Source of the DNA: Candidatus Gastranaerophilales bacterium
GTDB taxonomy: Bacteria > Cyanobacteriota > Vampirovibrionia > Gastranaerophilales > Gastranaerophilaceae
Assembly (NCBI GenBank): GCA_944326455.1
Contig: CALVEA010000004.1
Span: 32,305-96,304 of the forward strand
DNA: 64,000 bases
Reading direction: 5' to 3'
Shown here: positions 33,082 to 38,242 of the stretch, piece after piece
How the letters are laid out: the number at the start of each line of letters is the position of its first letter
Numbering within the stretch: the first letter of the stretch is position 1
The notes under the pieces: generated by a model
What the model was told of the DNA's origin: nothing
The model's input: only the letters and a program-made list of their open reading frames with translations
Databases searched by the model: none
Made by a program: the position numbers and the translations under genes

Positions 33082-33587
33082 TGAAAGATGATTTAAGAAG
33101 ATGGGCAAAAGCTGTCAGAATCTCTCTTGATATGAAATCTATCAGTGCTGAACTTGTTGAAAAACTGTTTCAATCAGAAGAATACGGCAGAGCTAAAAAT
33201 ATAATGATTTTTTATCCTAAAGATAACGAGGTGAACTTGCTCCCGATACTTGAAGATAAAACAAAAAAGTTTTATCTTCCCAAAATTGACGGTGATAACT
33301 TGCAATGTTGTCCTTTTACGGAAGATACAATTCTTTCAGATTCTGTCTTTAATACAAAAGAACCCGTAAGTGAAGCTTGTAATCCTGCACTTATGGATTT
33401 AATAATTGTTCCTGCCCTTGTCTGTGACAGAGATAATTACCGATTGGGCTACGGCAAGGGATTTTATGACAGGTTTTTACAGAATCTGAAAGCTGTGAAA
33501 ATTGTTTGTATCCCGAAATCCCTTGTAGTTGATACTATTTACCCTAATAATTATGATGTAAAAATGGACAAAATAATTACTGCCTAG
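33081..33587 (+). CDS. ygfA: 5-formyltetrahydrofolate cyclo-ligase
   Basis: YLPKI, DLIIVPAL, RLGYGKGFYDRFL, YDVKMDKIIT. Confidence 0.92.
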   Translation: MKDDLRRWAKAVRISLDMKSISAELVEKLFQSEEYGRAKNIMIFYPKDNEVNLLPILEDKTKKFYLPKIDGDNLQCCPFTEDTILSDSVFNTKEPVSEACNPALMDLIIVPALVCDRDNYRLGYGKGFYDRFLQNLKAVKIVCIPKSLVVDTIYPNNYDVKMDKIITA

Positions 33588-34801
33588 AAAAACATTTGTA
33601 TTTCATTTTGAATGGCTTTATGATATTTATCAATGCTTGGGAATAAGATTTTATCATAAGTTGCGTGATCATTATCTACAGAAATAACTTCATCATGTAA
33701 GATTCCGTAAGTGAAATCATTTGAATTTTGCAGTGCTCTTTGGGAATCATCCAGTCTAAAATAATTGTTTGAGCCGATTGTATCGTAGATGGTTATTCCT
33801 AAATCTTTAATATCAGGTATTTTATTTAATAATTCAGAGATAGAAAATCTTATTTGATCAACCTTGTTATGATTTATGTAATCATAAATCGCAATATTAT
33901 TATTGCGGTTATAGTATCTTATAGGGGCGGCATTCCTGCAGTTATTCCTTGTCAAATAAGTATCAATAATACTTACAAGTCCAAGACTTCCCGGCTGATT
34001 TAAATTGTTGTTGTCAGAGGATGTCATTTTGATAACAAATCTTCCTCCATCAGGAGTTTTTATTTTGAATACATTTTTGTCTGATTTACCGTCCAGATAG
34101 CGTTTAAAATTAAAAGTTTTTCCATTAACAGTCAGGTCAGGAACTTCTGACGGCTTCTTGAACCCATAGGTGCATTCTCGCCTTAAATGTTCTGCTATAG
34201 CCGGAAAATTTTCTGCTCCGATACTTTCAGGAACTATTCCTAATTCAAAGTCATCATTATGATATAACTCGCGATGCTTATTTAAAAGCACTTCTTCTTT
34301 CCAATCCGGACGTATTTTTAAAAGTTCAGATACGGATTCAGCATTCTTATATCTTTCATCAATATAGGCTTCATAGGCTTTTATATACAAGTTATTTGGG
34401 GCATACATGTTAAACACATCACTGTCCCAAGGAAGCCTTTCTTTAAACATTTGATAAAAGTTCGTAACATTTCTCGGTTGAGATGAAATACTGTCAATAA
34501 AGGCATAACTGTACTCTTTATTAGCAAGTATATGCCTTAAAAGCTGTTTCATGGATTCCTTTGGAGCATTAATTTTAAAAAAGGCATTAATTGCAGGCAG
34601 TTTATCATGATTAATGAACCATTTATAATCATTAACAAGATTGGTAAGAGGAATTCCGCCCCTAAAACCTAAATGCCCTGCATATACCTTCTGCGCTGCA
34701 GGAGTTGTGTTTTCCGGTTCATCAGATACTGTTTTTTGATAGCTTAGAGTTTCTGTTTTATCAGAATTATAGCTAAAATTTTTTATTGCACTTACTTTCA
34801 T
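33584..34801 (-). CDS. Hypothetical protein with atypical protein-kinase-like C-terminal domain
   Basis: GKSDKNVF loop, FVIK258, YD340TIGSN345, ISVD376 in kinase order. Confidence 0.6.
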   Translation of the reverse strand: MKVSAIKNFSYNSDKTETLSYQKTVSDEPENTTPAAQKVYAGHLGFRGGIPLTNLVNDYKWFINHDKLPAINAFFKINAPKESMKQLLRHILANKEYSYAFIDSISSQPRNVTNFYQMFKERLPWDSDVFNMYAPNNLYIKAYEAYIDERYKNAESVSELLKIRPDWKEEVLLNKHRELYHNDDFELGIVPESIGAENFPAIAEHLRRECTYGFKKPSEVPDLTVNGKTFNFKRYLDGKSDKNVFKIKTPDGGRFVIKMTSSDNNNLNQPGSLGLVSIIDTYLTRNNCRNAAPIRYYNRNNNIAIYDYINHNKVDQIRFSISELLNKIPDIKDLGITIYDTIGSNNYFRLDDSQRALQNSNDFTYGILHDEVISVDNDHATYDKILFPSIDKYHKAIQNEIQMFF

Positions 34802-34808
34802 TTATTCC

Positions 34809-35771: not shown

Positions 35772-36617
35772 TTATAAGTTTTCGATTTCTTGACTGTTGC
35801 TTTCCAAATCGTCTTTCAACATTTTTCTTACGATATCGCTTTGTGTATCCAGCATTTTTACAACAGTTTCAATATTAGCAACTTTTTGTGAAAGAATGGT
35901 ATCGGCATTTGACAATACATTTTGTGAAACTGACTGATAAGCAGATAATGCAGCCGATGTTGTACCTTGCATTAAGTTACCCATAACAACTGCCGGAAGT
36001 CCAAACTCTCCTAAATAAGGTGCGGCAGCTGTCATAATGCCACCCCATCCGGAGACAATACCTGCAAGAGGCATTAAAATGTTTGCAGCTCCGACTCCGT
36101 ATCCGTTTGCGGTTCCGACTCCATAAGCTGCAGCGCTTGCGATATCTGCAATACTTCCTATTCCTGAGGCATAACCTGTGGCAGACCCGGAAGAAGAACC
36201 GTATCCGTAGAGCAAATCTCCGATAGAAGATGCACCGCCGGTAGTATATCCGCTGAGGCTTGAAGCATATCCGCTAGGGAAACCGGAATAATTGCCCAGG
36301 CTGCTTACTCCGAAAGAGGAATATGTTCCGGTTAGCCCTCCTGTTCCTCCGGTATACTGGGACCAGTAAGAAGTTCCGGGAATATTCATTGCGGTTGTTC
36401 CGCCAAGCGTTGTCATAAAAGCGGAAGGTGCAAATAAACTGGCTAATTGATATAAAAACCCGCCAGCAGCTTCAAATCCGGTACCGGTTCCGACCGAACC
36501 TGCAACCGTTAAATCTCTTAATCTGTCATAAGTTTCATACAGCATAGATTTTGCATCGGAAGATGCTGAACCATATCTGTTTGCTATTACTAGATATCCA
36601 TCGTTTTTGTATGCCAT
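35772..36617 (-). CDS. Gly/Ser/Tyr-rich protein with hydrophobic hairpin and conserved C-terminal helix
   Basis: 281 aa; AGAGG RBS; NILMPLAGIVSGWGGIMTAAAPYLGEFGLPAVVMG hydrophobic segment; C-terminal helix aligns with both neighbours. Confidence 0.78.
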   Translation of the reverse strand: MAYKNDGYLVIANRYGSASSDAKSMLYETYDRLRDLTVAGSVGTGTGFEAAGGFLYQLASLFAPSAFMTTLGGTTAMNIPGTSYWSQYTGGTGGLTGTYSSFGVSSLGNYSGFPSGYASSLSGYTTGGASSIGDLLYGYGSSSGSATGYASGIGSIADIASAAAYGVGTANGYGVGAANILMPLAGIVSGWGGIMTAAAPYLGEFGLPAVVMGNLMQGTTSAALSAYQSVSQNVLSNADTILSQKVANIETVVKMLDTQSDIVRKMLKDDLESNSQEIENL

Positions 36618-36655
36618 TTGAACCTCTTATGTATTCTATAATATAGCTAATCAAA

Positions 36656-38242
36656 TTATCCGTTAAATGTCTTGAAGGAGCTTTCAACGTTATCATCGAC
36701 CACTTTCTTAACAGCTTCCATTTCGGTTGAAAGTGCGCTTTGTTCGGTATCAAGCTGTTTTAATCTCAACTCCAGCTGCAAGTCTTCCTGCTGAATAATT
36801 GAAGTCTGTGCATTGATATCCTGAACGGTTTTATCATATACAGCATTATCGTAATAATACTGGTTCATTGCATCTTGGTAAGCGTCATCATCAGTAACTG
36901 TTTCCATATTCAAAGTGTATGTAACGGAATCATTTTCAAAACGAACGCTGGTAAATCTTCCGTTCCCGTCAGTTTCAAGCAGAGCTTTTTCTGTTTCTTC
37001 AACTCTTGTAGAAACATAACTTGCATTGTAATAATTGAGTTTTGCTTGCCCGTCAATATGATTATTTCCGGTTCCGCTTTCATAAGAACTTATTAAATCT
37101 TCATAAGTCGTATAATATGTAGTTCCGTTAAGCTGGAATGAATAAATGCCTCCGGTGTAGCCTCCGTCTTCGCTGTAGCAATCAAGAATGCTTGCATCTA
37201 TTCCTTGTTCTTTTAGGTCTGCTACAACCTGACGAATTTCTGCTTCTTGGTCTTTTGTGAGAGAGGTTAAAAGCGTTAGTTCACTGTTCCCCAGATATGT
37301 AGGTCTTTTTAAAGCTTCATAATCCAGTACAGCTTGGTCATAGGCGCTTTTAGCTGTTTCTTCCGCTTCTTTAAGAGCATCAATTTGGTCATCATATTCG
37401 TTTGCAATATTTCCTATGGAGTTTTGCCCGGAAGTATGCAATACAGGAAGTATTGTTAATGTGCCGCCGCCGCTGCTGCCGTATAAAGAATTTAAATCAG
37501 AACCAAAAGCAATATCTCCTGTGGCTGAGTCAAAGTATACATCGCTCATATCCGGATCATTAGGATCCATATCCAAGGCGCCTTCATCAATCAACCTTTG
37601 AATCCCGGCGAGAACAAGAGCCTGATCGTCAGGATCAAGAGATGCATAACCCGTGTAGTTATGATAATCTCCCGCAGTCATATCTCTGGTACGGAAAGAA
37701 TAAGTATCCGTATTAGCATCGTATGTGCTTTCATTAATACCGGTATAAGTTGTCCTATCAATGTAGTTTGTTAAAGTGGCAGCTTGTTCTTCCAGTTCTT
37801 GTCTTGCGGCAACTGCTTCATCATAAGCCTGTTGGGTTTGTGTAACCAGGTTTTGTGCAGCTGTAATTTGAGCAATCGTTGCTTCTGTCCCTCCGGAGAA
37901 TTGTACCTGAGGGTCAGACAGACGTTTCATAGAACCTGTATATCTGTCAGTGTAGTAATAATGGGTTACAACATAGTTATAATCCGGGTCTGCGCTGGAT
38001 AGCTGCTGCCAGCTGTCTATTACAGAATCATTTGAACCGTCGGAATAAGAGTATTGAATCTTTGTATAGTCCGATGTGCTTGGCGGTACAGGTACCGTCA
38101 AACCCAGCATCTGATTAAATAAATTGGCACTCTGATTTGCCAGGACAGTACGAGCTTGGTTAATCTGCTGACCTTCATATTCGCAATTGGATTTTCGAGC
38201 AACCAGAGCTAAGTATCTGGCTTGTGATGCTGCCATTCCCAT
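36656..38242 (-). CDS. Acidic protein with conserved terminal helices and large variable middle (MGMAASQAR-type)
   Basis: 528 aa; AGGAGA RBS; N- and C-terminal coiled-coil segments around a D/S/T/Y-rich domain. Confidence 0.82.
   Translation of the reverse strand: MGMAASQARYLALVARKSNCEYEGQQINQARTVLANQSANLFNQMLGLTVPVPPSTSDYTKIQYSYSDGSNDSVIDSWQQLSSADPDYNYVVTHYYYTDRYTGSMKRLSDPQVQFSGGTEATIAQITAAQNLVTQTQQAYDEAVAARQELEEQAATLTNYIDRTTYTGINESTYDANTDTYSFRTRDMTAGDYHNYTGYASLDPDDQALVLAGIQRLIDEGALDMDPNDPDMSDVYFDSATGDIAFGSDLNSLYGSSGGGTLTILPVLHTSGQNSIGNIANEYDDQIDALKEAEETAKSAYDQAVLDYEALKRPTYLGNSELTLLTSLTKDQEAEIRQVVADLKEQGIDASILDCYSEDGGYTGGIYSFQLNGTTYYTTYEDLISSYESGTGNNHIDGQAKLNYYNASYVSTRVEETEKALLETDGNGRFTSVRFENDSVTYTLNMETVTDDDAYQDAMNQYYYDNAVYDKTVQDINAQTSIIQQEDLQLELRLKQLDTEQSALSTEMEAVKKVVDDNVESSFKTFNG

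Follow-up and report, generated by a model that had tools for sequence, protein, structure and literature searches.

A conserved operon of helical-hairpin proteins in Gastranaerophilales and its candidate link to a second flagellum-type export system

To our knowledge, the injectisome is the only well-established case of a non-flagellar secretion machine exapted from the flagellum. The proteins with which the present locus is compared follow a few recognizable plans. Flagellin (FliC) has conserved N- and C-terminal helices around a variable or hypervariable middle. The needle subunit SctF and the filament protein EspA are helix-turn-helix proteins of about 80-110 amino acids (aa) whose turn contains proline and whose C-terminus is highly conserved. 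Translocators of the YopD/IpaC/EspB type are acidic proteins of about 280-300 aa that contain an internal hydrophobic stretch and have an amphipathic or coiled-coil helix at the C-terminus, and WXG100/Esx proteins of about 100 aa occur in multiple, often tandem copies. Campylobacter FlaC is a flagellin-like protein that is secreted but is not part of the filament. Among the Gastranaerophilales, only about a quarter carry a full flagellar gene set, and the rest keep a flagellar subset with a suspected role in secretion (bioRxiv 10.64898/2026.04.24.720558; PMC4040986). Here we describe an operon in a stretch of 64,000 nucleotides (nt) from a Candidatus Gastranaerophilales bacterium (assembly GCA_944326455.1; contig C4, positions 32305-96304), hereafter called the window, which belongs to a genome of 1.93 megabases with a G+C content of 36%. 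We interpret the locus as the core operon of a system apparently specific to the Vampirovibrionia, the class covered by the genome searches, and built on a new helical-hairpin protein family.

The operon consists of five open reading frames (ORFs) in the same direction on the minus strand, encoding 528, 281, 91, 109 and 405 aa. None of the five proteins reaches a curated cut-off in Pfam or NCBIfam, and by eye none has a signal-peptide-like N-terminus. The 528-aa hairpin-family protein (36656..38242, minus strand) has a predicted N-terminal helix at residues ~1-45, a C-terminal helix at ~452-526 and a ~430-residue insert at the turn. It is followed by a 281-aa acidic protein rich in Gly, Ser, Ala and Tyr (35772..36617, minus strand), with a Gly-rich segment at residues ~172-215 and a long C-terminal amphipathic helix; by a small basic protein of 89 aa (35160..35429, minus strand), listed as a 91-aa ORF from 35435; and by a 109-aa minimal hairpin (34809..35138, minus strand), made up of a helix, a DLDPENP turn and a second helix. 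The hairpin proteins have an acidic isoelectric point (pI). The peptides and ORFs quoted in an earlier note on this DNA were all located where it had placed them. The order 528-281-91-109 is kept in 44 of 80 related loci, and the relatives recovered carry Gastranaerophilales or Melainabacteria names as metagenome-assembled genomes (MAGs). In five taxonomic families of the class the order hairpin gene, 281-like gene and, in several genomes, 91-like gene is also kept (examples are G001, G146, G078, G152, G017, G082 and G064). Because this gene order holds across families of the class, the triad is considered an old module. The 405-aa gene at the 3' end of the operon (33584..34801, minus strand), the supposed kinase, has no family match and is present in only 3 of the 80 related loci; it is a lineage-specific passenger outside the operon core and not a conserved member of the module.

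It had been claimed that the 528-, 281- and 109-aa proteins are three paralogs sharing a C-terminal helix. The gap-free C-terminal alignment behind this claim was counted correctly (10/35, 8/35 and 4/35 identities, with L4, T13 and S35 invariant), and the relationship is borne out, over both helices, for the 528- and 109-aa proteins. BLASTP matches these two proteins over the C-terminus with E = 7e-4. A hidden Markov model (HMM) built from 40 orthologs of the 109-aa protein and searched against all 5765 ORFs of the genome finds six long paralogs in which the two termini are in register (E values from 2e-13 to 1.6e-6): the 528-aa protein and proteins of 435 aa (contig C1), 394 aa (C12), 383 aa (C24), 474 aa (C22) and 332 aa (C10). 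In the long paralogs the HMM places the N-terminal helix at residues 1-42 and the C-terminal helix in the last ~55 residues. The only other match before E = 0.05 is a 143-aa relative with the C-terminal helix only. Since the next match appears only at E = 0.05, the HMM does not catch coiled coils generally, a risk named in the earlier note, and it is specific to the family across the ORFs searched. When enlarged families were compared with hhalign, the 528-aa protein matched the hairpin with P = 9.5e-16 at the N-terminus and P = 5e-15 at the C-terminus. Both the 528- and the 109-aa proteins contain, in register, the N-terminal MGxxxSxxR helix and the C-terminal TE..AV.KV..N.. helix of the family. 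As judged from their sequences, they are true paralogs that have the two terminal helices in common.

For the 281-aa protein a paralogous relationship was not established (P = 0.008-0.05). It lacks the N-terminal motif of the family, and BLASTP against the 528- and 109-aa proteins gives no match. Comparison of its C-terminal helix with the hairpin family by hhalign gave P = 0.05 and then P = 0.008 at 5% probability, and its 10/35 identity to the C-terminal helix of the 528-aa protein is reached by about 46 unrelated ORFs of the genome. The 281-aa protein was rejected as a third hairpin paralog on these grounds; as it shows neither the N-terminal motif nor a significant match of the C-terminal helix, the operon has two paralogs, not three. 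It is the most conserved member of the operon, with 84-100% identity among the best 120 matches. Its gene is single-copy in the genome, and in other families of the class its orthologs sit next to hairpin genes. The Gly-rich segment is moderately hydrophobic; the strongest hydrophobic stretch (residues 180-198, KD19 = 1.5) is borderline for a membrane span. Searches of Pfam, NCBIfam and the PDB with this protein gave no match, including none to YopD/IpaC/EspB or YopB/IpaB; the sub-threshold matches are to the helical domain of a bacterial dynamin-like protein and to residues 531-649 of the solved chain 2j68 of that protein. AlphaFold2 (AF2) modeling of the 281 family with 18 diverse sequences reached a predicted local distance difference test score (pLDDT) of 39, and the model was discarded. 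At a guess, the 281-aa protein could be a membrane-active partner of the hairpins.

The basic unit of the hairpin family is a 109-aa helix-turn-helix protein with conserved sequence in the N- and C-terminal helices. It starts with MGxAASQARxLxLTARKSDLE, turns at L[DE]P[DE]SP and ends with TEIEAVQKVIDKNIxxSFKTF; a typical sequence is MGLAASQARFLMLTARKSDLELTGQQINQSRLQLANITNDLFNVASNLDPDSDEAIQIQLRINSLQSLDQALELQLRRVDTQQQAVQTEIEAVQKVIDKNIDLSFKTFA. This canonical form is conserved along its entire length, and other families of the class have strictly 109-aa members, apart from a few of 110-115 aa. We assign the 109-aa protein of the window to the family as a divergent minimal copy. Genomes of the Vampirovibrionia (Melainabacteria) have 4-14 copies of hairpin genes, often in tandem. 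A large protein collection contains 683 bare 109-aa hairpins from Vampirovibrionales (some labelled Vampirovibrio sp.), Melainabacteria and unclassified or other cyanobacterial MAG labels, all of them annotated as 'hypothetical' or labelled 'RecN' by the Joint Genome Institute (JGI). We regard the JGI label 'DNA repair ATPase RecN' as a coiled-coil artefact; the NCBIfam recN model scores hairpins at just 14-16 bits versus a cut-off of 408.

More than 4000 relatives of the 528-aa protein were found in the large protein collection, and a profile search for the superfamily returned 3988 clusters at 50% identity. Among the 150 matches listed, long members have lengths of 246-1074 aa, most aligning from the first to the last residue. 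The inserts reach ~960 residues, and six different ones are present in this genome. Because both of its termini match the bare 109-aa family, the 528-aa protein is best described as a hairpin with ~430 residues inserted at the turn. The alignment, hhalign and column conservation agree on this layout, which had been called flagellin-like. The first ~55 residues (MGMAASQARYLALVARKSNCEYEGQQINQ...) are almost invariant and the last ~130 are highly conserved, so that column conservation is U-shaped, with values of 0.75-0.89 towards the two termini and of 0.20-0.35 across residues 121-300. Within the insert, the proximal part is beta-rich and conserved, and residues 121-300 make up a hypervariable centre. 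The AF2 model of the 528-aa protein (pLDDT 81) has a beta-rich core, a 75-residue C-terminal helix and an N-terminal helix of low confidence. A Foldseek search of this model against the PDB found nothing at E < 0.9, and there was no flagellin among the 44 weak matches. Scans of all operon proteins, of five paralogs and of five canonical hairpins against Pfam and NCBIfam yielded nothing beyond coiled-coil noise below threshold. When the alignments of the 528-aa protein, the hairpins and the 281-aa protein were used as profiles against the PDB, the matches were to designed coiled coils, to haemagglutinin HA2 and to a dynamin-like protein (E = 0.03); we attach no meaning to any of these.

A conserved fourth gene of the operon, which escaped the earlier note, encodes the 89-aa protein. 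Within the ORF at 35160-35435, the likely start codon is the ATG at 35429, directly 3' of an AGGAG ribosome-binding motif. The protein has a pI of 10.4 and 44 orthologs, with a near-invariant C-terminal half; its homologs are found 3' of the 281 homologs in other families as well. Instead of the 89-aa gene, the public gene call lists a 61-aa ORF in the gap that separates it from the 281-aa gene (window 35422-35607). Neither this 61-aa ORF nor a 76-aa ORF in the same gap was accepted as a gene, since both overlap with the promoter region and lack conservation as genes: in G153 the gap measures just 173 nt, and the apparent conservation of the 76-aa ORF is that of the embedded promoter. As to function, we can only guess at a chaperone or regulator.

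A flagellar sigma factor seems to control genes of the hairpin family. FliA is encoded in the genome (229 bits versus a cut-off of 189.6), and the strict sigma-28 motif TAAAG[AT]TT-N11-12-G[CT]CG[AT][AT]A has 25 sites in the genome versus ~0.3 expected, nearly all of them 16-70 nt 5' of a start codon. The single strict match in the window (0.02 expected) is a predicted sigma-28 (FliA)-type promoter, TAAAGTTT-N11-GCCGTTA, at 35612..35637 on the minus strand, in the gap between the 281- and 89-aa genes. Of the 44 orthologous operons, 34 have kept this site; its distance to the start of the 91-aa frame is 164-190 nt in most of them and as much as 313 nt in six loci. Sites are also found 34-43 nt upstream of four of the six long paralogs, those on C10, C12, C22 and C24. 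With a promoter of the TAAA-N15-GCCGATAA type as the criterion of membership, these predicted sites place the 89/109 gene pair and the four paralogs in the sigma-28 regulon. Most sigma-28 sites have a tandem TGTAA-N5-TGTAAC element ~23 nt before the -35 region. The other targets are proteins with polar N-termini that lack a signal peptide, among them EF-hand, Gly-zipper/DUF6861 and HD-GYP proteins. The five canonical flagellin genes of the genome have no strict sigma-28 motif, so the motif is not validated on textbook targets.

Two further regulatory elements were noted. A putative sigma-70-type promoter of the 528-aa gene at 38262..38310 (minus strand), weakly indicated by inspection of the sequence, contains TTGACTTTAT, which is also present upstream of the closest paralog of the 528-aa gene on contig C1. 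In an alignment of 15 loci, the conserved leader elements TGTTAACAnnTGTAACAA and GGCAATTATTA-N10-TGTTTTATTATAC at 35457..35530 (minus strand) may represent a second promoter or a regulator site directly 5' of the 89-aa gene. A similar TGTTTTTATAT element is found upstream of hairpin genes in other families, and a regular-expression search for this second promoter type gave too few sites to define a regulon. The 143-aa protein that matches only the C-terminal hairpin helix (E = 4e-6) is encoded at C13:41823-42254, outside the window; upstream of its gene are TGTAACAA and TGTTTTTATATAT, elements also seen in the operon leader.

The distribution of the family was compared with that of flagellar genes in a sample of 301 genomes of the class, for which the labels of taxonomic families are the tool's own. 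The hairpin family is present in 150 of the 301 genomes, and FlhA is found in all 150 of these. None of the 99 FlhA-negative genomes has a family member; occurrence of the family in genomes without type III-type export genes, which would have spoken against an export link, was thus not found among them. The genome of the window has an ordinary flagellar set, with five flagellins (111-124 bits against flagellin profiles), FlgL, rod and hook proteins and FliA. It also has two export-gate sets, both outside the window. Set A is a fliPQR-flhB-flhA(-pilZ) operon at C13:20534-25348. Set B consists of two parts, fliE-fliF-?-fliH-flhA' at C1:51605-59000, and a FliN/SctQ-like gene (with a Pfam SepQ_C domain) followed by the genes for FliO, FliP', FliQ' and FliR' at C28:2241-9000. 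The composition of set B was read in this genome, and fliE-fliF-fliH-flhA' was also read in G153. A third FHIPEP match, at C8:62398-63423, is a 495-aa frame whose match is restricted to the C-terminal, cytoplasmic half of FlhA (profile positions 321-653); almost all relatives have a second or third match to FHIPEP.

Within the window's own taxonomic family, 11 of the 39 genomes sampled have flagellin and two copies of FliP, and the remaining 28 have no flagellin and one FliP copy. Set A is in exact step with flagellin across the 39 relatives, and the single FliP copy of the 28 flagellin-less relatives is taken to be that of set B. FliA and the hairpin family are kept in 39 of 39 genomes. The co-occurrence with an absence of flagellin that had been put forward as a check is therefore seen in all 28 flagellin-less relatives, which have retained the hairpin family, FliA and one FliP. 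The two export-gate sets are the basis of the partial flagellar gene retention that has been published. In several other genera there is also linkage at the level of genes. In G153, a complete genome without flagellin, and in G205, the operon of a long hairpin gene with 281 and 91 (and 109) lies 1-5 kilobases (kb) from fliE-fliF-?-fliH-flhA', and at least 21 genomes, belonging to four genera, have a long family gene 6-12 kb from FlhA'. Genes for pilin-like proteins, recognizable by their N-terminal methylation motifs, adjoin the hairpin operon of G153 (G153:C1, L172 12879-13379) and, in the set B cluster, FliR' (L171 13591-14352).

Elsewhere in the window, positions 3-980 hold two flagellar rod genes of the FlgB/FlgC type, followed at 986-10188 by a run of two-component and GGDEF regulators with a pilin-like N_methyl gene at 7181-7966. 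Nearer to the operon, the genes at 30082-31347 (421 aa) and 39523-40305 have no family match; their products have polar, aromatic-rich N-termini and lack a signal peptide. The 421-aa protein has a C-terminal Gly-zipper-like hydrophobic region, in which it resembles some of the sigma-28 targets.

We have compared the operon proteins to the systems described at the outset. The hairpin family resembles flagellin in having conserved terminal helices around a variable or hypervariable middle, an arrangement found in the 528-aa protein, and also in its multiple paralogs, the lack of a Sec signal, the sigma-28 promoters of some members and the co-occurrence with FlhA. However, the 528- and 109-aa proteins, five paralogs and five canonical hairpins have no match to Flagellin_N or Flagellin_C (PF00669/PF00700) in hmmscan with E values up to 1-10, and the AF2 model of the 528-aa protein has no match to a D0/D1-type fold in the Foldseek search. 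The minimal unit of the family is only 109 aa long, the family persists in genomes without flagellin, and the window's genome has five ordinary flagellins in addition to it. The bare hairpin shares with SctF and EspA the size, the helix-turn-helix structure, the proline-containing turn and the highly conserved C-terminus, and its genes are found near those of an export apparatus of the type III kind, among them one for a SepQ/FliN-like protein. It differs in lacking a match to the needle families of Pfam and in having 4-14 dispersed copies instead of one, and the basal-body genes associated with hairpins are of the flagellar type (FliE, FliF, FliH, FliO). A secretin or another gene peculiar to injectisomes did not come to notice, though no search aimed at one was made. 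The 281-aa protein resembles the translocators in its length, acidity, internal hydrophobic segment and C-terminal helix, and its gene adjoins a putative filament or needle gene; it has no sequence match to them, and its long Gly/Ser/Tyr-rich low-complexity region is atypical.

Given these results, we tentatively favour the view that the hairpins resemble flagellin or needle subunits and are substrates of a type III export system derived from the flagellum. The terminal helices, the insertion at the turn, the hypervariable centre in gut lineages, the many paralogs and the lack of a signal peptide together suggest a subunit of an exposed flagellin- or needle-type polymer, and the predicted sigma-28 control, the co-occurrence, the persistence together with set B and the gene linkage suggest a flagellum-type apparatus as the export route. 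The two terminal helices would pack as a coiled-coil core, like D0/D1 of flagellin or an injectisome needle subunit. The hairpin subunits, which have no Sec signal, would leave the cell by way of the flagellum-type apparatus as late substrates of the sigma-28 class. Once exported, they would polymerise or be displayed on the outside, where the inserted domain would be exposed. A membrane-associated or cap-like partner might then be seen in the 281-aa protein, and a chaperone or regulator in the 89-aa protein. A bolder version, which we consider rather doubtful, is that the hairpins are subunits of a hitherto unseen extracellular needle or filament built by set B, as a second type III machine of flagellar origin retained by Vampirovibrionia after the loss of flagellin. 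In this exaptation of the flagellum, independent of the injectisome, hypervariable exposed domains would have been gained in gut Gastranaerophilaceae, the role of a membrane-active tip or translocon would fall to the 281-aa protein, and the cargo would be the other polar proteins under sigma-28 control.

Several observations weigh against an exported, flagellin- or needle-like hairpin. Profile and fold searches found no sequence or fold similarity to flagellin, rod, hook or needle proteins or to translocators. There are 52 FlhA-positive genomes, all outside the five family-positive families, without a detectable family member; because such lineages exist, the export system does not depend on the hairpin family. 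Of the representatives sampled from these family-negative lineages, G006 and G007 lack flagellin and have a single copy of FliP, and two copies are found in G010, G016 and G034. The co-occurrence of FlhA and the hairpin family is confounded by phylogeny, and the operon does not adjoin export genes in this genome or in Vampirovibrionales-type genomes. With respect to regulation, the 528-aa gene and its closest paralog on C1 have no sigma-28 motif, and the strict site is absent at most hairpin genes of other families. The motif also precedes the gene for a cytoplasmic-type HD-GYP protein, so that membership in the sigma-28 regulon is no proof of secretion.

The hairpins might instead stay in the cytoplasm and never be exported, as a coiled-coil scaffold or cytoskeletal polymer, or in a regulatory or adaptor role towards sigma-28 or the flagellum-type machine (similar, for instance, to that of a chaperone or an anti-sigma factor), with the 281-aa protein serving as a membrane anchor. 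All evidence for export is indirect, sigma-28 regulons do include cytoplasmic proteins such as HD-GYP, the profile matches in the PDB are to generic coiled coils only, many lineages with the export system lack the hairpin family, and paralogs stand singly amid housekeeping genes. We consider this explanation rather unlikely. The combination of a hypervariable tip insert with near-invariant termini is unusual for scaffolds but typical of surface-exposed polymer subunits, as is the presence of 4-14 paralogs in tandem arrays, and inserts of up to ~960 residues fit poorly with a chaperone or anti-sigma role. Like FlaC, the hairpins could be secreted substrates that do not polymerise, the hairpin being an export or chaperone-binding module for variable adhesin or effector passengers. 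The wide variation of insert size and sequence (total protein lengths of 246-1074 aa; six different inserts in this genome) and the effector-like character of other sigma-28 targets (polar N-termini, EF-hand domains, Gly-zipper proteins) would agree with this. The ancestral and most widespread form, however, is the bare 109-aa hairpin without a passenger, and its conservation from end to end speaks for a structural function of the hairpin as such; we judge a purely passenger-carrying module to be unlikely.

In its full form, the model proposed by the earlier note has a shaft, a decorated subunit and a translocator as paralogs in one polymer that delivers a kinase, a protease and a deiminase. 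The 281-aa protein does have a Gly-rich hydrophobic segment and a C-terminal amphipathic helix, its gene always adjoins a hairpin gene, and its C-terminal helix gives a weak profile match (P = 0.008). Against its inclusion stand the missing N-terminal motif, the lack of significance of that match and the lack of a usable AF2 model. The 405-aa 'kinase' gene is not conserved with the operon, and nothing found links the protease and deiminase genes to the module, and the complete model appears quite improbable to us. Export by a type VII-like or other non-type-III route, as expected for a WXG100/Esx-like family, is very improbable. The hairpins do share with Esx proteins the ~100-aa helix-turn-helix, the multiple copies, the tandem pairs and the absence of a signal peptide. 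There is, however, no match to the WXG100 clan even at E = 10, the turn is L[DE]P[DE]SP instead of W-x-G, the organisms are diderm, and the regulatory and phyletic links, through sigma-28 and flagellar genes, point elsewhere.

A second flagellum-type export set appears to be kept across the whole class, and most of the gut members sampled (28 of 39 in the window's own taxonomic family) have no flagellin genes. The operon described here provides the first concrete candidate substrates and partners for this second set. It also brings to light a large unannotated protein family (~4000 clusters at 50% identity) with a flagellin-like architecture, predicted sigma-28 control and hypervariable inserts in host-associated lineages. 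The JGI 'RecN' labels on 109-aa hairpins can be corrected, and a sigma-28 regulon is defined, from predicted sites, for an uncultured lineage of the human gut. With these candidates, the role of the leftover flagellar genes in non-motile Melainabacteria becomes directly testable.

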